A program made the position numbers and the translations under genes. Under the pieces are notes generated by a model. It made no database searches and had not been told where the DNA came from. It saw nothing but the letters and a program-made list of their open reading frames with translations. DNA of 64,000 bases. Origin: a bacterium (GTDB taxonomy: Bacteria > UBA10199 > JACPAL01 > GCA-016699445). This document shows, in pieces, positions 6,998-19,465 of the stretch. Numbering within the stretch: position 1 is the stretch's first letter; each line of letters starts with the position of its first letter. The stretch lies in the NCBI GenBank assembly GCA_036274695.1, contig DASUFF010000030.1, positions 2,510 through 66,509 of the forward strand. Reading direction: 5' to 3'.

Positions 6998-7861
6998 GTG
7001 GCTTCCTTGAAGAAACGCCTGCCCGCCAACGCCCCCGGCGACTTCTACGTCGACGCGACCTGCATCGACTGCGACACCTGCCGCTGGATGGCGCCGGAGA
7101 CCTTTGCCGAGAAGGACGGCAAGTCCTACGTCCACACCCAGCCCGGCGATCCGGAGCGAAGGCTGCGCGCGCTCAAGGCGCTGACGGCCTGCCCCACGGC
7201 GTCGATCGGGACGGAGGCGCGCCACGACATGGCGCCGGTCTTCGAAGCGTTGCCCGACTCCATAGAAGGCAACGTCTTCCACTGCGGCTTCCACGCGGAG
7301 GACAGTTTCGGCGCGGCCCCCTATCTCATCGTCCGTCCGCAGGGGAATATCCTCATCGATTCGCCCCGGTTCGCGTCCCCGCTCGTCAAGCGGTTGGAGG
7401 CGCTGGGCGGCGTGAAGACGCTCTTCCTCACGCACGGCGACGACGTGGCCGACCACCGCAAGTTCAAGGAGCATTTCGGCTGCGAGCGCATCCTGCACGC
7501 CGGCGACGTGCGCGCGTCGACCGAAGACGTCGAATTCAAGCTGGAAGGGGAGGAGGCGGTGCGCTGGGATAAGGAGATCCTCTTCCTCCCGACGCCGGGA
7601 CACACGAAGGGCTCGGCCTGCCTTCTCTATCGCGATCGTTTCCTCTTCACCGGCGATCACCTGGCCTGGGACGACGACGCGAACCGGTTGGAGGCCTTTC
7701 GGAACGCCTGTTGGTACGATTGGAAGGTGCAGCGGGAATCGATGAAACGCCTGGCGGACTACTCCTTCGGATGGGTCCTGCCCGGACACGGGCGGCGCGT
7801 TCACCTGCCCGCCGACCGGATGGCGACCGAACTGCAACGCTTGGTGGAGTGGATGGCGTGA
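6998..7861 (+). CDS. Ferredoxin-domain and metallo-beta-lactamase-fold fusion protein
   Basis: The N-terminus carries a single-cluster ferredoxin motif, CIDCDTCRWMAPETF with a downstream CP. The remainder is an MBL fold. It shows ILIDSP, a degenerate motif 2 (LTHGDDVADH instead of HxHxDH), and then PGHTKG, FTGDH and LPGHG. Confidence 0.6.
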   Translation: MASLKKRLPANAPGDFYVDATCIDCDTCRWMAPETFAEKDGKSYVHTQPGDPERRLRALKALTACPTASIGTEARHDMAPVFEALPDSIEGNVFHCGFHAEDSFGAAPYLIVRPQGNILIDSPRFASPLVKRLEALGGVKTLFLTHGDDVADHRKFKEHFGCERILHAGDVRASTEDVEFKLEGEEAVRWDKEILFLPTPGHTKGSACLLYRDRFLFTGDHLAWDDDANRLEAFRNACWYDWKVQRESMKRLADYSFGWVLPGHGRRVHLPADRMATELQRLVEWMA

Positions 7862-7874
7862 GGTGCCGGCCCAG

Positions 7875-7962
7875 CGGAGGGGGAGGGATTCGAACCCCCG
7901 ATACCCGTAAGGGTATACCTGATTTCGAGTCAGGCGCCTTCAACCAACTCGGCCACCCCTCC
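7875..7962 (-). tRNA. tRNA-Ser (anticodon CGA), type II with a long variable arm
   Basis: The minus-strand sequence is GGAGGGGTGGCCGAGTTGGTTGAAGGCGCCTGACTCGAAATCAGG...TATACCCTTACGGGTATC...GGGGGTTCGAATCCCTCCCCCTCCG. It has a 7-bp acceptor stem, an anticodon loop CTCGAAA, and a 6-bp variable-arm stem. Confidence 0.85.
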
Positions 7963-8010
7963 GCTCGAACGGCACCGTGTCTCGACGGCGAGAGGGGTGT
8001 ACTAGACCTT

Positions 8011-8400
8011 TCAGTTCGTCTTCAAGCCCTTTCGCTCCAGGGACCTGGCCTTTTCCGCGGTCTTCTTCCGATTCACCGTCTTTAATTTTTCGCGCTGCTC
8101 GGGTGTCAGGAGGGCCTGAAACTTGGCGTCGCTCTCGGTCTTGACGGCCTCGCGTTTCGCGCGGAAGTCCTCATAAAGGGATTTCAGCTTCTTATCGCGC
8201 TCCTGGTAGATCGCTCGAAGCTTCTCCTGTTGGTCCGCCGTCAGGTTCAGGTCGCTGGAGAGGCCTTGCGCGCGGCTTTCGGCGCGTTCCCGGCGCGGCT
8301 GAGGAGCCTCTTGCGCGGGATGCCATTCCGCCGTTGCCGCGGGGCCGGCGCAAAGAGCGACAAAGGCAAAAAACAGGGCCGACGTTTTCGAAAGGCGCAT
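8011..8400 (-). CDS. Spy/CpxP-family periplasmic protein (LTXXQ motif)
   Basis: It has a signal peptide and two LTXXQ motifs (LNLTADQQEKL and LLTPEQREKL). It is charged and helical. Confidence 0.7.
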   Translation of the reverse strand: MRLSKTSALFFAFVALCAGPAATAEWHPAQEAPQPRRERAESRAQGLSSDLNLTADQQEKLRAIYQERDKKLKSLYEDFRAKREAVKTESDAKFQALLTPEQREKLKTVNRKKTAEKARSLERKGLKTN

Positions 8401-8553
8401 GGATTCCTCCTTCGGAAGTGTGCCTGGTGACGGGTTAGACAGACGCCCGCCCGGCGCTGGGGTATTTGAAACGATTTCAGAGCAATATCAAGCACGTGGG
8501 GCGCCGACACTTTCGGGCGCTTCCTTTCGTCTAATCCCACAGGAGGAAAGGTT

Positions 8554-8880
8554 ATGAAAAAAGGATTGGTGATCGGCGCGTTGGCTTTGGGATTGACGGC
8601 CGGAGGAGCGGCTCTCACGACGTCGCAGGACCTCTTCGCACACGCCAAGGAGTTCAAGGCCAAGATGGAGGAGCGCCAGCAGAAAAGGCTGGAGAAGATG
8701 ACCCGCGAGCTGAACCTGACCTCGGATCAGAAGGCGAAGATCCAGTCGCTCTTCAACGATCAGCGCGCGAAGATGAAGGCGATCCGCGAGGAGACGCATA
8801 CGAAGATGCTGGCCCTGCTCAACGCCGACCAGAAGGCGAAACTAGAAAAATGGCGTGAGGGGAAGCGCAAGAAGGACTAG
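8554..8880 (+). CDS. Spy/CpxP-family periplasmic protein (LTXXQ motif)
   Basis: It has a signal peptide and two LTXXQ-type motifs (LNLTSDQKAKI and LLNADQKAKL). The SD is AGGAGGAAAGG. Confidence 0.7.
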   Translation: MKKGLVIGALALGLTAGGAALTTSQDLFAHAKEFKAKMEERQQKRLEKMTRELNLTSDQKAKIQSLFNDQRAKMKAIREETHTKMLALLNADQKAKLEKWREGKRKKD

Positions 8881-8889
8881 TCTTCCTTT

Positions 8890-9429
8890 GTGGCGCCGGA
8901 ACGCGATGATTTCGAGGAGTTTGTCCGAGGCCAGCGGGAGCGCATGCTTCGGCTTTGCGCCGGGATCCTGTCGGATCCCGGCCAGGCCGAGGACGCCGCC
9001 CAGGAGGTTTTCGTGAAGGCCTACCGCGCCTGGGAGAATTTCCGCGGGGAGAGCTCGCGGTCGACCTGGCTCTACCGGATCGCCGTGCGCCACTGCGTCG
9101 ATCTGCTGCGCTTCCAGCAGCGTCTGCGCCGGATGTTCGCCACCGAAGGCGACGCGGCCGCGGAGGCGATGCAGGAGGCCCCCGGCGCGGAGGGCCGGCT
9201 GCCGGGATTCGAGACGGCGGTGGAATCGCGCATCGCCGCCAAGGAGATCCTGTCGGCCCTGCCGGAAGGGGACCGAGTGCTTCTGTCCTTAAGGGAGATC
9301 GAGGGATTGTCGTACGAGGAAATGGCGCGCGTTTTGGAGATTTCGGTGGAGGCCGTGCGTTCGAGGCTCGCACGCGCGCGACGCGCGCTGGCGCGCGTGT
9401 GGGAGAAAAGGCTTCAAGAGGGATCATGA
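8890..9429 (+). CDS. ECF (RpoE-like) sigma-70 family sigma factor
   Basis: It has a GTG start. Region 2 reads AQEVFVKAYRAWENFRGESSRSTWLYRIAVRHCVD. Region 4 reads LSLREIEGLSYEEMARVLEISVEAVRSRLARARRAL. Confidence 0.85.
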   Translation: MAPERDDFEEFVRGQRERMLRLCAGILSDPGQAEDAAQEVFVKAYRAWENFRGESSRSTWLYRIAVRHCVDLLRFQQRLRRMFATEGDAAAEAMQEAPGAEGRLPGFETAVESRIAAKEILSALPEGDRVLLSLREIEGLSYEEMARVLEISVEAVRSRLARARRALARVWEKRLQEGS

Positions 9430-9887
9430 AGAACGGCGACGAACATCTGCAGGTTTATCTTTTGGACGATCCGGAGACGGACGCCTCCGGGCGCCGCTCC
9501 ATCGAGGCGCATTTGGCGGGCTGCGCCGATTGCCTGCGTTCGCTGGAATCCTACCGCCGCGCCCGGCGGCTGATCGCGCCCCCGGAGGTTTCGCCGGAAA
9601 TTTCGGAGGTATCGACGGGGGATTTCGTGGAAAGGGTCTTTTCCAAGGTGGACGCCAAGCAAGCCTCGTCGCGGGAGGCCGGCAAACGCCGCTCGGTCTG
9701 GGCCTGGCCGGCCGCGGCCTTCGCGCTCGCGGCGGCGTTCGCGGCCGCCCTCTACTTCGGGTCCGCGCGGCCGGAGACGGATCAGGATCTGCTGGCGGGC
9801 GGGAACGAAGACTTTTATGAATGGGCGACGACGTCCGCGAGCCCGTCCGACGAGGACGTCTTGAAGGTCGTCTTGGAGGATCTCTGA
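9426..9887 (+). CDS. Zinc-finger (ZAS-type) transmembrane anti-sigma factor
   Basis: It overlaps the sigma gene stop by 4 bp. It carries an HLAGCADC (Hx3Cx2C) motif and one TM segment, WAWPAAAFALAAAFAAALYF. Confidence 0.7.
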   Translation: MKNGDEHLQVYLLDDPETDASGRRSIEAHLAGCADCLRSLESYRRARRLIAPPEVSPEISEVSTGDFVERVFSKVDAKQASSREAGKRRSVWAWPAAAFALAAAFAAALYFGSARPETDQDLLAGGNEDFYEWATTSASPSDEDVLKVVLEDL

Positions 9888-10261
9888 TGATTTCCTGGAA
9901 AACTCTGCTGGCGGGCTTTCTGATCGGTCTCATCGCCGGCGGCGGCTGGGGGGCGTGGTACGCGAAGGAGCACGGGCACTTCTGGGACAAGCCCGGGGGC
10001 CGCGAGGTCCGGCTTCTGAAGGAATTCACCCGTGAATTGGATTTGACGGACGCACAACGCGCGTCCGTCAGCGCCATCCTTCAAAGCCAGAGAGGGAGGA
10101 TCAAGGCGATTCGCTCCGAAATCCGCCCGCGCATGGAAGAGATCCGGGAGCAGGCCGGCGGAGAGATCCGCGCCTTGCTGGGCCCCGACCAGCAGGAGCG
10201 CTTCGATGTCCTGCAAATGCGCATGAAAGAGGAAAGGCGCAAGCGCGAGGAAAACCGCTGA
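9887..10261 (+). CDS. Membrane-anchored Spy/CpxP-like LTXXQ protein
   Basis: It has an ATGA overlap with the anti-sigma stop and an N-terminal TM helix. It carries LTXXQ-type motifs (LDLTDAQRASV and LLGPDQQERF). Confidence 0.65.
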   Translation: MISWKTLLAGFLIGLIAGGGWGAWYAKEHGHFWDKPGGREVRLLKEFTRELDLTDAQRASVSAILQSQRGRIKAIRSEIRPRMEEIREQAGGEIRALLGPDQQERFDVLQMRMKEERRKREENR

Positions 10262-10352
10262 ATCGATAAAAATTAGACGCTTTCCCCTTCCCGCCGCAAG
10301 GCGTTACAATACCCCTATCCCTCACGTCAGGACGATCCACCGGGAGGCGCTT

Positions 10353-11252
10353 GTGCGCGCGGCATGGCTTTTTGTCTGCGTGCTTTTTGTATCCGCGACG
10401 CTGCTGGGCGGCGGGCCGGCGGGGTGCGGCCAGACGGCCACCGAAGAACAGGCGGCCGTCGACACGGACGGCGACGGCGTGGTCGACGAAAGCGACAATT
10501 GCACGGCGGTCGCGAACGCGGACCAGGGCGATGCGGACGGCGACGGCGTCGGCGACGCCTGCGACGTCACCGCCTGCGAGGAGCAGGGCTACGATTGCCA
10601 GAGCCCTCTTTTTCTCTCCTGCGAAACCAAATCCGATTGTCTTTGTCTGATCGACGGCTGCGGCGAGACCTCGGGCGGCGTTCTGGACGCCGACCGGTTG
10701 GATTGCTGCAACGGTTTCTGCGTGAGCTTCGTCGATACGCCGCTGGAAACCTGCGAGGACCTGGCCGAGGCCGCGCCCGCCTGCTCGGAGACGGGCCACG
10801 TCTTTCCCGAATGCGGCTTCAGCGTCGGATGCGACGGCCGGGTGGCTTCCCCCGGATTCTTCGAGTGCCAGGCGGGCTGTTGCGGAAGGCGCCTGCCGGC
10901 CTTCATCGGCGAGGGCGAGCCCTGCGTCGCAGATCCCCTCTCCGAGCCCCAGTGCGATTTCGGAATGGCCTGCGTCGACGGGACGTGCGCCAAGATCTGT
11001 CCGGACGACGGCGCGGGCCAAGCGATCCTGACCTGCGAACAAGTGGCCCTGTTCGGTCCCGAGGGCGATTGCGGAAATTTCGGTTACGAGCCTTGCGATG
11101 AGGAGACGGGTTGTTGCGGCGCCCCGTTGCCGGCCGGTCCCTGCGACCCGTATCCCAGCTGCGGCGACGTCGGAAACGATTGCGCGGCCGTCGGCCTGGA
11201 AGGAGTCTGCGCGACGCCGGACGAGTGCTGCGTGTTGCCACCGGAGCCCTAA
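10353..11252 (+). CDS. Secreted Cys-rich protein with thrombospondin type-3 (DxDxDGxxDxxDNC) calcium-binding repeats
   Basis: It has a signal peptide. TSP3-like repeats read DTDGDGVVDESDNCTAVANADQGDADGDGVGDACD. These are followed by about 40 Cys in CxxC/CC clusters. Confidence 0.6.
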   Translation: MRAAWLFVCVLFVSATLLGGGPAGCGQTATEEQAAVDTDGDGVVDESDNCTAVANADQGDADGDGVGDACDVTACEEQGYDCQSPLFLSCETKSDCLCLIDGCGETSGGVLDADRLDCCNGFCVSFVDTPLETCEDLAEAAPACSETGHVFPECGFSVGCDGRVASPGFFECQAGCCGRRLPAFIGEGEPCVADPLSEPQCDFGMACVDGTCAKICPDDGAGQAILTCEQVALFGPEGDCGNFGYEPCDEETGCCGAPLPAGPCDPYPSCGDVGNDCAAVGLEGVCATPDECCVLPPEP

Positions 11253-12373
11253 TGACCATCACAAAGCCGATTCGTGCGCCGATCGCCGTTTTGCTGGCCG
11301 CGGTGGCCCTGGTGGCGGAGTGCTCCAGCCCCGGGGCGCCTCCGAGGCCGCCGGCCGAGATCCCGGGCTTGGTCGCGTTTCCGCAAAGCGTGGAGATCGA
11401 CGTATCGACCATCTCCTCCGGCGCCGTTCCCGCGGCGCTTTCGACGCCCAAGGCGGCCGTGGGGGCGGGCGGGGAATTCTCCAGCGCCATTACGACGGGC
11501 GCGGACCTGATCCGCACCATCTACAAGGTGTTCGTGGAGATCGGGTTGAGGCCGCTTACCCGCGTCCAGGCGCCGGTCGATCCGACGGTGACGCGGTTCG
11601 AAGCGACGGTGACGGAAGGGGCCACGCCGGGGGATTTCAAGATCGATTTTGCCGATTTCGACCTGGACGGCGACGGCGCCTCGGAAGGCTGCACCGGCTG
11701 CACCTGCCCGACCGGCTGCACCGGCGTTTCCTGCCCCGCGTCGGCCCCTCTCGAAAGCCTCAAGCCCGTCTGTTACCGCGTCTGGTTCCGGGAGGAGGGG
11801 GGATCGTCGTTCACGCGGCTGATGGCCGGCGTCTTCGAGCGGCTGGCGGTCGCGGACGACGCGGCGACGCCGGAGGACGAGAACAATCCCGGCGCCGGCC
11901 GTTTCCGCCGGTTCGGTTTCAACTTCGGGGACGTCTCCAGCGACTTCGCCTCTTTCTACGATTTTCTCGATCCGGACGATCCTCTGAACCGCTCTTCGGA
12001 GGTTTTCCTAAAGACCGTGACGGAGGACCCGGGCGGGGCGATCACGACGTTCAACCATCTGGACGCCGTTCAGATCGGGGACGCCCCGCAAAAGACCGTG
12101 CGCGTGACGGCGGGAGCGGCGTCCAGCCCGCCGAACGAGGTCTTCAAGTACCGGGGAGGTTTCCGGGAAGATGAAGACTTCTTCAGCGGCGTCATTCAAA
12201 ATCCCTCCGAGCTTTTGGAGTTCTGCGCCCGCATCTCGACAGGCGACGCGGCGGAGGATCCGGGCGCGTGCGACGCCCTCGGGATTTCCGTCGTGCCTTT
12301 GCCGTTCCTGAACTTCGCCTCGGAGGACGACGTCGCCGTTCCGGCGGGATTTCCCGAAACGCCTACTTTTTAG
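11252..12373 (+). CDS. Lipoprotein of unknown function with a DxDxDG calcium-binding motif and a Cys cluster
   Basis: It has a TAATG overlap with the upstream gene. The signal peptide carries lipobox LVAEC. It contains FADFDLDGDGASEGCTGCTCPTGCTGVSCP. Confidence 0.55.
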   Translation: MTITKPIRAPIAVLLAAVALVAECSSPGAPPRPPAEIPGLVAFPQSVEIDVSTISSGAVPAALSTPKAAVGAGGEFSSAITTGADLIRTIYKVFVEIGLRPLTRVQAPVDPTVTRFEATVTEGATPGDFKIDFADFDLDGDGASEGCTGCTCPTGCTGVSCPASAPLESLKPVCYRVWFREEGGSSFTRLMAGVFERLAVADDAATPEDENNPGAGRFRRFGFNFGDVSSDFASFYDFLDPDDPLNRSSEVFLKTVTEDPGGAITTFNHLDAVQIGDAPQKTVRVTAGAASSPPNEVFKYRGGFREDEDFFSGVIQNPSELLEFCARISTGDAAEDPGACDALGISVVPLPFLNFASEDDVAVPAGFPETPTF

Positions 12374-12821
12374 ATTGTCTTAAATTCCGGAAAAAACGGG
12401 AGAGGATGTCCCCGCATTCGGTCTTCCGTACGCCGCGGGCGACTTCGATGCGGTGATTGAGCCGGCGATCCCCGGACAGGTCATAGAGGGAGCCGCAGGC
12501 CCCGGCCTTGGGGTCCATCGCTCCGAACACGAGACGTCCCACGCGCGCCTGGATCAAGGCGCCCATGCACATCAGACAGGGCTCGAGCGTGACGTAGACG
12601 GCGACGTCGTTCAGCCGCCATCGCTTCAGCTTCCGCGCGAGCTTGCTGATCAGATAGATCTCGGCGTGGCCGAGAGGGTCGTTCTTGGACTCGCGAAGGT
12701 TGTGGGCGCGCGCGAGGACCTTTCCGTTTCGGACGGCCACGGCGCCGATGGGGGCTTCCTTTTTTGCGGCCGCCTTCTCCGCCTCCCGGAGGGCCGCCTC
12801 CATGAATCGTTCGTCACTCAA
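12363..12821 (-). CDS. tadA: tRNA-specific adenosine deaminase
   Basis: It has the CMP/dCMP deaminase zinc motifs HAEI and PCLMCMGA. It overlaps panE by 4 bp. Confidence 0.85.
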   Translation of the reverse strand: MSDERFMEAALREAEKAAAKKEAPIGAVAVRNGKVLARAHNLRESKNDPLGHAEIYLISKLARKLKRWRLNDVAVYVTLEPCLMCMGALIQARVGRLVFGAMDPKAGACGSLYDLSGDRRLNHRIEVARGVRKTECGDILSRFFRNLRQSKK

Positions 12822-15133: not shown

Positions 15134-17086
<1,953 letters not shown>

Positions 17087-17098
17087 GTCGCTCCCTCG

Positions 17099-18076
17099 TT
17101 ACCGCCCGCCGCCCCTCGGCCGGCCCATCGGCGAGAAGGGGCTCGCGTTCTGGCCGCCCGCGGCCTTGAACTGGACGATCAGGATCGTCTCTCCCTCTTT
17201 GAGGCCCGAGACGATCTCTGTCCGCTTTCCGTCGTTCAATCCCGTCGTCACCGTCCGCTCCTCCGGCTTGCCGCGTCCCTGCTTCACCAGGACGATCGCC
17301 TTGCCCTCCCGCTTCTTGACCGCCTCCGAAGGAATCAAAAGGACGTCGGGCTTGGAATCGACCAGGAAATTCACGTTGGCCGTCATGCCGCTCCTTAAGA
17401 CCTCGGGCGGCAGGTCGGGGAGGACGTCGATGATGTAGGTGGTGACGTTGTTCACCGTCGTCGCGTCGTAGGCGATCTTGTCGACGTGGGCGGGAAATTC
17501 CTTTTGAGGGTAGGCGTCCAGCGTGATCTTGGCGTCCTGCTTCAGTTTGACCTGGGCGATGTCGGTCTCGTCCACCTGGGCCTTGACGGTCAGGCGGTCC
17601 GACATGACGAAGAGGGCGTCGGTGCCGGCGAAGGTCTGGCCCTGCTGGACGTTTTTCAAGATGATGGTGCCGTCGATGGGCGCCAGGACCGGCGTCGCAT
17701 TGTAGAACTCCTCCCAACGTTTCAACTCCGCCGGGCCGCGCGCGCGCGCGGCGTCGAGCAGGGCGGCGCGCTCGGTCGAACTCATCCAGCCCAGCACCTG
17801 GCCCCGCTTCACGGCGTCGCCTTCCTCGCTCAAGACTTGCTCCACGCGCCCGGCGATGGGCGGCTTGATCTCCAGCCGGTTCTCCGGCGCTACCGTGCCG
17901 GTGGCCAGGATGGTGACGTCGATCTGGCCGCGTTTGACGGAGACCTCGCGGTATGTGGGCGCCTGGTCCGATTTCTTTTTCCAGACGAAGACCGCGATCA
18001 GGACGAGGACGACGACGCTTCCGGCCACGGCCCACTTGACGGGGAATTTACGTTTCTTGCCGTTGGTGGTGTTCAT
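17099..18076 (-). CDS. macA: MacA/HlyD-family periplasmic adaptor (membrane fusion protein)
   Basis: It has an N-terminal TM anchor and lipoyl/beta-barrel blocks. It sits immediately upstream of macB. Confidence 0.8.
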   Translation of the reverse strand: MNTTNGKKRKFPVKWAVAGSVVVLVLIAVFVWKKKSDQAPTYREVSVKRGQIDVTILATGTVAPENRLEIKPPIAGRVEQVLSEEGDAVKRGQVLGWMSSTERAALLDAARARGPAELKRWEEFYNATPVLAPIDGTIILKNVQQGQTFAGTDALFVMSDRLTVKAQVDETDIAQVKLKQDAKITLDAYPQKEFPAHVDKIAYDATTVNNVTTYIIDVLPDLPPEVLRSGMTANVNFLVDSKPDVLLIPSEAVKKREGKAIVLVKQGRGKPEERTVTTGLNDGKRTEIVSGLKEGETILIVQFKAAGGQNASPFSPMGRPRGGGR

Positions 18077-19378
18077 TTAAGGTAGGACCCCCTTGCCTTG
18101 AGCCTGCTCCCACGCCGCCTCGGCGATGATGCGGTCGCGCCGGCTCTGCAACACGGCCTTTTCGCGGTTGATCAGGTCGTTCTCGATGATATCCCAGTCC
18201 TGGAAGGAGAGCAGGCCGTTGTTGTATTGCGCGCGCGCGATGTCGGCCCGGACGGTGGCCGCCTCCAGGAAGGATTGATCGGTCTTGAGCCTCTCCACTG
18301 ATTCCTCATAGGCCGTGTAGGCTTGCACCAGCGCGGAGCGCACCGCAGTTTCGGTGTCCGTTTGATTGAAGCGGGCCGCGGCATCCAGGGCCTTCGCGCT
18401 CTTCACGTTGTAGAAATCCCTCCCGCCGTTGAAGATCGGGATGGAGAGGTTGGCCCCCACCGACCAGGCGCCTTCGGTGGGGAAGAAGGAATCGTCCTGG
18501 GTGCCGACGGCGGCGTTGACGTTCAACGCGGGGAAGAAGGCCGAGCGCGCGGCGGTGATGGTTTCCTTGGCGAATTTCTTGCGGCTGACGGCGTCGCGGT
18601 AGTCCGGCGTGTCCCGCATCATCGCGTCCAGATCCGCCGGCGGCTTGGGGGAGGTGAGGGGAATGCCGCCCGCCACATGGAGGCCGTCTCCGGAATCGCG
18701 TCCCAGCGCCTTGGCCAATTGATGCTGCGCCGTCTTCACGTCGTCCTTGGCCTGGAGGCTCCCGAACTCCGCGTCCTTCAAGTTGGCCTGGGAGAGGAGC
18801 AGCGAGCCCTTGTTTTCCTGGCCGCTGTCGAAGCGGAGCTCCACCATGTCCTTGTTGTCCTTGCGGCGTTTGATGATTTCCCGGGCGAGCTTTTGGGAGG
18901 ACTGGGCGAATTGGAGGCCGGCGAAGGCCGATTTCAAATCGAAGCTGATCTTGGCGGCGGTGCCCTCCAAGGCCGCGGAGGCGATGCCTTCGTTGGCCTT
19001 GGCCTGGTTGACCCTGGCCTTGTCGGCGAAGCCGTTGAAGATGTTTTGGCTCGCCTGAAGGGACGAGGAAAAGGTGGAACGGTTATTACCGGTGGTGAAG
19101 GTCGACCCGGTAGGGACGATCGTCCCCGCCGCATTGAACGAATCGCTGTTGCTGTAGCCTAGATTGCCCGCGACCTGAGGAAAGAAATTACTGCGCGCCG
19201 ACTTGGTCAGGTAGCGGGACGACGAGACTCTCTCGCGCGATGAGTTCAACTCCGGATTCACTCGGGCGGCCTCCTCCACGCATTGCTTCCACGTCAACGT
19301 TTCGGCGCCCGCGGGGGCCGCGGAGAGGCCCGCCAGTCCCAGGGCGGCCAGAAACGAAAAAATGAGGGGGATTTTCAT
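18077..19378 (-). CDS. TolC-family outer membrane efflux protein
   Basis: It has a signal peptide and two repeated OMF halves. It sits immediately upstream of macA. Confidence 0.8.
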   Translation of the reverse strand: MKIPLIFSFLAALGLAGLSAAPAGAETLTWKQCVEEAARVNPELNSSRERVSSSRYLTKSARSNFFPQVAGNLGYSNSDSFNAAGTIVPTGSTFTTGNNRSTFSSSLQASQNIFNGFADKARVNQAKANEGIASAALEGTAAKISFDLKSAFAGLQFAQSSQKLAREIIKRRKDNKDMVELRFDSGQENKGSLLLSQANLKDAEFGSLQAKDDVKTAQHQLAKALGRDSGDGLHVAGGIPLTSPKPPADLDAMMRDTPDYRDAVSRKKFAKETITAARSAFFPALNVNAAVGTQDDSFFPTEGAWSVGANLSIPIFNGGRDFYNVKSAKALDAAARFNQTDTETAVRSALVQAYTAYEESVERLKTDQSFLEAATVRADIARAQYNNGLLSFQDWDIIENDLINREKAVLQSRRDRIIAEAAWEQAQGKGVLP

Positions 19379-19465
19379 TGTTTCTTAGACGGCGGCCAAT
19401 CCCTAAAAGTGTCGGGAAAAACGGGCCCTTGGGAAATCCCCTAGCATGGGTTAATTTGAAAAGGC

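Follow-up and report, generated by a model that had tools for sequence, protein, structure and literature searches.

The window analysed here, a stretch of 64,000 nucleotides (64 kb) of contig DASUFF010000030.1, contains a compact locus in which the genes for a sigma factor of the extracytoplasmic function (ECF) type and a membrane anti-sigma factor stand among genes for Spy/CpxP-like proteins of the LTXXQ family. The original prediction, made from the letters of this DNA, had placed five genes here, and all five are found where it put them:

8554..8880, + strand: secreted Spy/CpxP-like (LTXXQ) protein of 108 amino acids (aa), first gene of the operon (PF07813, 26.9 bits)
8890..9429, + strand: ECF (group 4) sigma factor of 179 aa with a GTG start (Sigma70_r2, Sigma70_r4_2, TIGR02937)
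9426..9887, + strand: single-pass membrane anti-sigma factor of 153 aa (zf-HC2, HxxxCxxC)
9887..10261, + strand: membrane-anchored Spy-like protein of 124 aa, at position +2 from the sigma gene (PF13801, 29.4 bits)
8011..8400, - strand: secreted, divergently encoded LTXXQ paralogue of 129 aa (PF13801, 37.9 bits; PF07813, 29.9 bits)

The junctions between the four genes on the + strand consist of a 9-nt gap (first gene to sigma), an ATGA overlap (sigma to anti-sigma) and a TGATG overlap (anti-sigma to the +2 gene), with a Shine-Dalgarno-like sequence ahead of the start at each of them. Judged by this arrangement, 8554-10261 (+) is one tightly coupled operon; the tight transcription unit that had been proposed is thus borne out by the overlaps, and also by a predicted ECF-type promoter of its own, described below. 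The module is covered by the deposited records HEX5035950.1-HEX5035954.1, whose source is a metagenome-assembled genome (MAG), and in which the divergent and +2 proteins are labelled 'periplasmic heavy metal sensor' by the Prokaryotic Genome Annotation Pipeline (PGAP), the anti-sigma factor and the product of the first operon gene being 'hypothetical'. No further copies of the module's families were found in the 64-kb window.

The sigma factor has sigma-2 and sigma-4 domains only (PF04542 Sigma70_r2, 58.3 bits; PF08281 Sigma70_r4_2, 56.2 bits; TIGR02937, 95 bits with a cut-off of 42.9), which places it in ECF group 4, and its N-terminus is conserved across relatives. The assignment of the three Spy-like proteins to the LTXXQ family holds on hidden Markov models (HMMs) for two of them and needs qualification for the third. 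The PF07813 cut-off of 24.3 bits is exceeded by the divergent protein, which also lies well above the PF13801 cut-off of 29.2, and by the first operon protein (HEX5035951.1), whereas the +2 protein (HEX5035954.1) stays below it at 22.1 bits; it does match PF13801, presumably a member, like PF07813, of the CpxP clan of Pfam, and the profile of its family matches Spy in the PDB with an E-value of 2.5e-5. The three are paralogues (mutual BLASTP E 1e-10 to 3e-13, with 34% identity between the divergent and first operon proteins), with a pair of LTXXQ-type motifs in each that are separated by about 45 residues. The divergent protein has a signal peptide, as does, read by eye, the first operon protein. 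With scores of 16-35 bits against cut-offs of 148-174 in the NCBIfam Spy/CpxP equivalog models, they are not orthologues of E. coli Spy or CpxP, and in single-sequence PDB searches of all three the matches to Spy were non-significant (E 0.07-0.7).

Relatives of the locus were collected by word-indexed searches with the anti-sigma factor and with the +2 protein, which returned about ten sequences each, all from metagenomes or MAGs. An alignment of the region ahead of the first operon gene, taken from the window and from these relatives, gave the motif GACACTT-N15-CGTCTAA, which we take to resemble RpoE-type ECF promoters (GGAACTT...TCTAA). It stands at the same position in eight relatives (L001-L005, L007-L009), with variable spacer and flanks, and the window has two copies:

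8506..8534, + strand: predicted sigma-dependent autoregulatory promoter GACACTT-N15-CGTCTAA, exact motif, with 19 nt between it and the start codon (ATG) of the first operon gene
19385..19413, - strand: second perfect copy of GACACTT-N15-CGTCTAA, its end 6 nt ahead of a TolC-like gene's ATG

The 64-kb window has no other match below three mismatches, and both of these are perfect, with 0.00 expected by chance. Matches with three mismatches (at 532, 29070, 46618, 55664 and 58885) occur at chance level and were disregarded, and a scan of 7800-12600 with the sigma-70 consensus returned no promoter.

The order Spy-like protein (108 aa), sigma, anti-sigma, anchored Spy-like protein (124 aa) is kept in seven relatives (L001-L005, L007, L008) and, on contigs long enough for a full view, persists down to 52% anti-sigma identity; L006, L009 and L010, which are short contigs, show parts of the unit, and the sequence of the first operon gene is itself conserved in L001, L004, L005 and L007. 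A recurrence of this kind is not due to chance. The divergent LTXXQ gene, by comparison, is shared by the window with its closest relative alone (L005, 93% anti-sigma identity), so that the conserved unit comprises four genes and not five, and no copy of the promoter motif was found upstream of it within three mismatches at either spacing. The original prediction had counted this gene as part of the module and had suggested that periplasmic LTXXQ proteins are its regulated output. The divergent gene drops out of both claims, while the two operon-encoded proteins, lying under the operon's own ECF-type promoter, would thus be outputs of the sigma factor.

The second promoter copy, about 9 kb from the sigma operon, faces an efflux operon:

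15134..19378, - strand: efflux operon tolC-macA-macB, predicted regulon member
18077-19378, - strand: TolC-like outer membrane factor (OEP, 199.9 bits)
17099-18076, - strand: MacA/HlyD-type adaptor (HlyD_D23, 64.9 bits)
15134-17086, - strand: MacB-type fused ATPase-permease (MacB_PCD, 159.2 bits; ABC_tran, 113.3 bits; FtsX, 75.5 bits)

With its three components in one operon, this is a tripartite ABC pump of the MacAB-TolC type. The promoter motif recurs directly upstream of tolC in L110 (85% TolC identity; GACACTT-N15-CGTCCAA), in L091 (76%; AACACTT-N15-CGTCCAA), in L111 (62%; GACACTT-N15-CGTCTAA; its metagenome is also that of L004) and in L109 (53%; GACACTT-N15-CGTCTCA; it shares a MAG contig with the sigma operon of L001). 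The genes preceding tolC differ between these four (MFS, NDH-2, aquaporin and, by its sequence, probably a tRNA), and retention of the motif despite different flanks amounts to a phylogenetic footprint. The tolC-macA-macB operon thus appears, from these alignments, to be a conserved target of the sigma factor.

The anti-sigma factor scores 22.0 bits with zf-HC2, 0.2 below the cut-off of 22.2, and weakly with the NCBIfam anti-sigma models. Its H29-x3-C33-x2-C36 motif (HxxxCxxC, nt 9510-9533) and H7 are invariant in 11 orthologues, to which the following observations on this protein also refer, and make it a class I zinc-binding anti-sigma (ZAS) factor. The invariant pattern of the N-terminal domain extends to DEHL..YLLDDPET..RR.IE.H...C..C, the cytoplasmic linker is variable, and a membrane helix (residues 91-111, nt 9696-9758; helix and topology read by eye) leads into a periplasmic tail. 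The ZAS motif had been considered to imply a thiol-oxidative or metal-related signal. A cytoplasmic redox sensor, in which oxidation of C33 and C36 frees the zinc and then the sigma factor, would agree with the invariance of the motif and with weak matches to the RsrA model (25.5 bits with a cut-off of 62.5) and, in a profile comparison with the PDB, to RslA (E 0.013), which is redox-sensitive. However, the predicted first zinc ligand is His7 and not a Cys, which sets the protein apart from the RsrA-like redox subset; we take a His at this position to be typical of ChrR-type anti-sigma factors and a Cys to be typical of RsrA. The same PDB comparison gives an equally good match, likewise marginal, to RsiW (E 0.0097), a membrane anti-sigma factor that is inactivated by proteolysis and not by redox chemistry, and the membrane helix and conserved periplasmic tail would be superfluous in a purely cytoplasmic sensor. 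Moreover, HxxxCxxC is missing from the corresponding proteins of three distant loci (L031, L011 and L012), all of which retain the +2 protein, with a similar tail preserved in L031 and L011 as well. We therefore consider it very unlikely indeed that the ZAS motif serves as a redox sensor; HxxxCxxC most likely holds a structural zinc, and the signal that had been deduced from it finds no support.

The periplasmic tail itself (residues 112-153, nt 9759-9884) is acidic and nearly invariant, reading QDLLA..FYEWA..PSDEDVLKVVLEDL. Such strong conservation of a short anti-sigma tail suggests, from the alignment, a specific binding or recognition function. A comparable degree of constraint is seen in the +2 protein, whose Gly-rich N-terminal membrane helix has W4, K5, G10, G14, G19, G20 and G22 invariant in 9 orthologues, and the pattern WK...LxGxxxG is kept across the wide +2 family; as far as the alignments can tell, this helix is conserved beyond the needs of a simple anchor. 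That family is large: an exhaustive profile search gave 946 cluster representatives at E<=1e-10, mostly of about 125 aa and aligning from the membrane helix onward, which by itself indicates that operons of this type are common. In a sample of the family, 64 of 78 members match PF13801 and 60 of 78 match PF07813.

The annotation of the +2 protein raises the question of a metal sensor of the CnrYXH kind, in which the protein would bind a periplasmic metal and signal to the anti-sigma factor, and the pump would export the metal. The ECF group that the operon resembles most, ECF281, has been tied to heavy-metal stress, as a suggestion, by Casas-Pastor et al. (2021, NAR 49:986, PMC7826278). The +2 and divergent proteins match PF13801, 'Heavy-metal resistance', and bear the PGAP label given above; CnrX shares the architecture of an N-terminal membrane helix and a periplasmic helical domain and itself scores 91.2 bits with PF13801 over positions 5-124; and an efflux pump lies in the predicted regulon. 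The CnrX sequence used here was confirmed against PDB entry 3zg1, which it matches over its full length at 311 bits. Against this, the PF13801 match of the +2 protein is marginal (29.4 bits with a cut-off of 29.2) and covers profile positions 4-77 of 125 only, and hhalign of the +2 family with CnrX aligns nothing except the membrane helix, at 44% probability. The PDB structure matched by the +2 family profile is Spy and not CnrX, NccX, ZraP or CpxP. No invariant His or Cys was found among the 9 orthologues of the +2 protein, M83 is the sole invariant Met, and the His residues that follow the membrane helix vary between relatives; the protein does not qualify as a CnrX-type metal sensor, and a metal site, which the metal half of the proposed signal would need, is not supported. 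To our knowledge, MacAB-TolC pumps are also not a typical class of metal exporter. Taken together, we consider metal sensing of this kind improbable, and the label 'periplasmic heavy metal sensor', which rests on thin evidence, would need correcting if the predictions made here hold.

To see the tail and the +2 protein in a wider setting, we turn to a scan of species-representative genomes with the sigma alignment, whose matches come from many phyla, reach 45% identity at best and do not include the window's own lineage. An LTXXQ-family gene lies near the sigma gene in 16 of 80 distant loci, within 0.7 kb in 14 of them. These linked loci are mostly top-ranked and belong to Elusimicrobiota, Myxococcota, Planctomycetota and unclassified MAGs; the linked gene usually encodes a membrane-anchored protein at +2, after an anti-sigma factor of about 150 aa, and one locus from Myxococcota (L011) repeats the window's four-gene layout. 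GACAC-N17/18-GTCT stands a short way upstream of the unit in half of the linked loci (8 of 16) and in 1 of the 64 unlinked ones, the latter being a truncated contig (background 0.016 hits per kb). An acidic ...LL...LE(E/G) C-terminus is seen in the anti-sigma factors of the linked loci in 4 of 9 cases by a strict pattern and in 6 of 9 by eye, compared with 0 of 31 in unlinked loci, where these proteins often end in PPDS.GG.Y..L. The conserved tail and its tendency to co-occur with the +2 protein across phyla suggest, at the level of sequence, that sensing takes place in the periplasm. It is likewise plausible, as the original prediction had proposed, that an LTXXQ protein modulates the anti-sigma factor, given a nearly invariant tail and an acidic C-terminus that appears, in distant relatives, only where the +2 LTXXQ protein is kept.

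How deeply the Spy-like proteins are involved is a separate matter. One could speculate that the +2 protein is an integral co-sensor, bound to the anti-sigma tail and with its GxxxG-type helix packed against that of the anti-sigma factor until client proteins or toxic compounds draw it off, so that a chaperone titration resembling that of CpxP is wired to an ECF sigma factor with a Bae-like output, in a form widespread among Elusimicrobiota, Myxococcota and uncultured lineages; this we put forward tentatively. Alternatively, with the same module and regulon, the Spy-like proteins might be mere products, and the tail itself, or proteases that recognise it, would do the sensing. Co-transcription alone accounts for the gene linkage, and in Phocaeicola vulgatus a spy gene is a co-transcribed regulon member for which no modulatory role was shown (PMC13114119). 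L009 is without the first Spy-like gene and yet keeps the switch genes, so that at least the first copy is dispensable for the switch. On the other hand, the +2 protein is kept at the same position across phyla, its helix is over-conserved for an anchor, and its presence tracks a particular anti-sigma C-terminus, all of which speaks against the output-only view. On balance we find it doubtful that the Spy-like proteins are output only.

The overall picture that we favour, with moderate confidence, is that of an autoregulated ECF281-type envelope-stress switch that senses in the periplasm, has a Spy-like protein as partner of the anti-sigma tail and includes the pump in its regulon. At rest, the anti-sigma factor would hold the sigma factor at the inner membrane, and the input would be read in the periplasm through the short acidic tail. 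The +2 Spy-like protein would dock on the tail or shield it, its Gly-rich helix possibly packing against the Ala-rich helix of the anti-sigma factor. Once the Spy-like proteins are engaged by damaged proteins of the envelope or by a harmful compound in the periplasm, the tail would become exposed and the anti-sigma factor would be inactivated, probably by proteolysis, with release of the sigma factor. The identities and coupling of the genes, the conserved unit, the conserved promoter motif at both operons and the conserved tail are shown by the sequences, whereas the signal, its effect on tail binding by the Spy-like protein and the proteolytic step are inferred. Free sigma factor would then transcribe its own operon, with more Spy-like chaperone and more anti-sigma factor serving as output and as negative feedback, and would also drive the tolC-macA-macB pump about 9 kb away. 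Several points weigh against this picture. The source is a MAG of an uncultured organism; the promoter motif is absent upstream of tolC in two TolC relatives from other lineages (L092 and L093, with 51% and 41% identity); and the LL...LE(E/G) tail pattern was set after the data had been inspected. In addition, the AlphaFold model of the +2 protein (predicted local distance difference test score, pLDDT, 89.6) is all helical, and structure searches with it returned generic helical hairpins only, so that it is the sequence profiles alone that carry the relationship to Spy.

Among known systems, the closest is ECF281, a bioinformatic group formed from the original ECF20 and ECF113, with a zinc-finger anti-sigma factor at +1 and a PF13801 protein at +2 (PMC7826278). 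The window has this published gene order of sigma, zinc-finger anti-sigma (+1) and PF13801 protein (+2), and its operon fits the ECF281 type, as judged by gene context. It differs in an extra Spy-like gene inside the operon, upstream of sigma, and the heavy-metal link finds no support in conserved metal ligands in the window. Two further groups are related in part: ECF290 has the same PF13801 partner with an RskA-type anti-sigma factor, and ECF291 is that of CnrH (PMC7826278). No experimentally studied member of ECF281 was found in the literature searched, where no other paper names the group, Rhodius 2013 states no ECF20 motif in its text, and an Azospirillum operon of RpoE8, a hypothetical protein and one labelled 'periplasmic heavy metal sensor' is mentioned in passing.

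An experimental precedent exists in P. vulgatus, where the ECF/anti-sigma pair CirY/CirZ is co-transcribed with a Spy-like gene and autoregulated (Gut Microbes 2026, PMC13114119). In colitis, induction of the cirYZ-spy unit exceeds 100-fold, and deletion of the anti-sigma gene induces sigma, spy and two neighbouring genes (PMC13114119). The co-transcription of an ECF sigma/anti-sigma pair with spy is what the two systems have in common, whereas P. vulgatus belongs to another phylum, the other regulon members there are peptidoglycan-related and the window's is an efflux pump, and neither the anchoring of the Spy protein nor a second copy upstream of sigma is described there. Together with the description of ECF281, this means that ECF control of Spy-like proteins is already in print in both bioinformatic and experimental form, and the novelty of the wiring that the original prediction implied cannot be maintained. 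What the locus adds, at the level of prediction, is a promoter of defined sequence, a second target that is conserved and, for the ECF281-type group, a candidate site of input.

CnrYXH of Cupriavidus metallidurans (ECF291) resembles the window in its ECF sigma factor, in a small membrane anti-sigma factor with a short periplasmic C-terminus, in an anchored, helical, periplasmic PF13801 partner and in having an efflux pump as output. The pump in CnrYXH is of the resistance-nodulation-division (RND) type. CnrX shows no detectable relation to the +2 protein outside the membrane helix, and its metal ligands have no counterpart in the window. CnrY, moreover, belongs to another anti-sigma class, has no zinc finger and is encoded at -2 (PMC7826278). 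Spy and CpxP of E. coli belong to the same LTXXQ superfamily as the window proteins, and the titration of a periplasmic inhibitor proposed for the window recalls CpxP and CpxA. The Bae regulon comprises spy together with mdtABCD and acrD, a combination resembled by the window's pairing of Spy-like proteins with a pump. The Bae and Cpx systems use a histidine kinase where the window has a sigma/anti-sigma pair, and one of the window's Spy-like copies is membrane-anchored. If true, our reading would mean that a Bae/Cpx-like envelope response has been reached through a sigma/anti-sigma switch outside enterobacteria. RsiW of Bacillus subtilis, which acts on SigW, is likewise a membrane-spanning HxxxCxxC anti-sigma factor and the best match of known structure, weak as that match is; its extracytoplasmic part is unrelated and it has no Spy-like partner. 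If our reading of the window holds, it would refine and not overturn current understanding, and the locus offers predictions that can be tested, namely the promoter, a two-operon regulon of Spy-like proteins and MacAB-TolC, and the tail as the likely input site.

Some features of the promoters and of the surroundings deserve brief mention. Only 3-6 nt separate the end of the -10 element of the tolC promoter from an ATG in the window (19379-19391 (-)), L110, L091 and L111, four of five members of the lineage, a distance so short that the tolC-macAB transcript may be leaderless; L109 instead has a 22-nt leader ahead of tolC. Upstream of the divergent LTXXQ gene, the nearest promoter look-alike was rejected for its wrong spacing, read by eye. 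In L001 (1903-2352 (-)) and L004 (3553-4008 (-)), the divergent slot is filled by a secreted protein of about 150 aa with faint EF-hand matches (DxDxDG-like loops), which could be a calcium-binding periplasmic protein. A tRNA-Ser(CGA) gene (7874-7962 (-)) adjoins the divergent gene in the window, and the same tRNA stands beside the sigma unit in L009; it is possible that this site is an insertion hotspot, which may explain the variable slot. In L009 (630-1043) the first Spy-like gene is mostly deleted, while the promoter, sigma, anti-sigma and +2 genes are kept; the last 50 nt or so of the deleted gene remain, abutting the sigma start, and the upstream tRNA-Ser gene is retained, just as in the window.

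Two genes follow the operon in the window:

10353-11252, + strand: Cys-rich protein with thrombospondin type 3 repeats (TSP_3, 29.1 bits)
11252-12373, + strand: lipoprotein of 373 aa with no family match

Both are also found downstream of the operon in L004 and L005 and are absent in L006 and L007, and L001 has possible counterparts upstream of the promoter, matched by gene size and order only. Because their position varies between relatives, they were rejected as core members of the operon.

Among the distant loci, the +1 proteins of L011 (6504-6752), L012 (6532-6849) and L031 (6528-6989) are without the HxxxCxxC region, and in L011 and L012 the entire N-terminal portion is missing. The membrane helix is preserved in all three proteins, each of which is followed by the +2 protein; the acidic C-terminus is retained in L011 (...LTLEDL) and L031 (...YLEEL), and L012 has no similar tail. 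A protein of 262 aa (P0023) has the appearance of a fusion between a ZAS anti-sigma factor and an anchored Spy-like protein; its linker looks frameshifted and the genes overlap, and we set it aside as a probable artefact of sequencing or gene calling.

Finally, eight distant loci have a second copy of the promoter motif within the sigma gene, at its 3' end and always on the + strand; the window's own sigma gene has no such internal copy at its 3' end. The matches are:

6485-6513 of L012, + strand: internal 3'-end motif
6503-6531 of L014, + strand: internal 3'-end motif
2316-2344 of L015, + strand: internal 3'-end motif
1254-1282 of L016, + strand: internal 3'-end motif
6488-6516 of L022, + strand: internal 3'-end motif
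4868-4896 of L027, + strand: internal 3'-end motif
6494-6522 of L028, + strand: internal 3'-end motif
from 6484 of L031, + strand: internal 3'-end motif

Seven of the eight start exactly 28 nt ahead of the stop codon's final base and are read in frame, CGA-CAC-TT. as Arg-His-(Phe) and C-GTC-TAA as Val and stop, each with the rare Arg codon CGA and a TAA stop, and the motif of L031 lies in another frame. The uniform codons, together with the different frame in L031, point to selection on the DNA, which suggests that in these distant loci an internal, sigma-dependent promoter may read into the anti-sigma and Spy-like genes.

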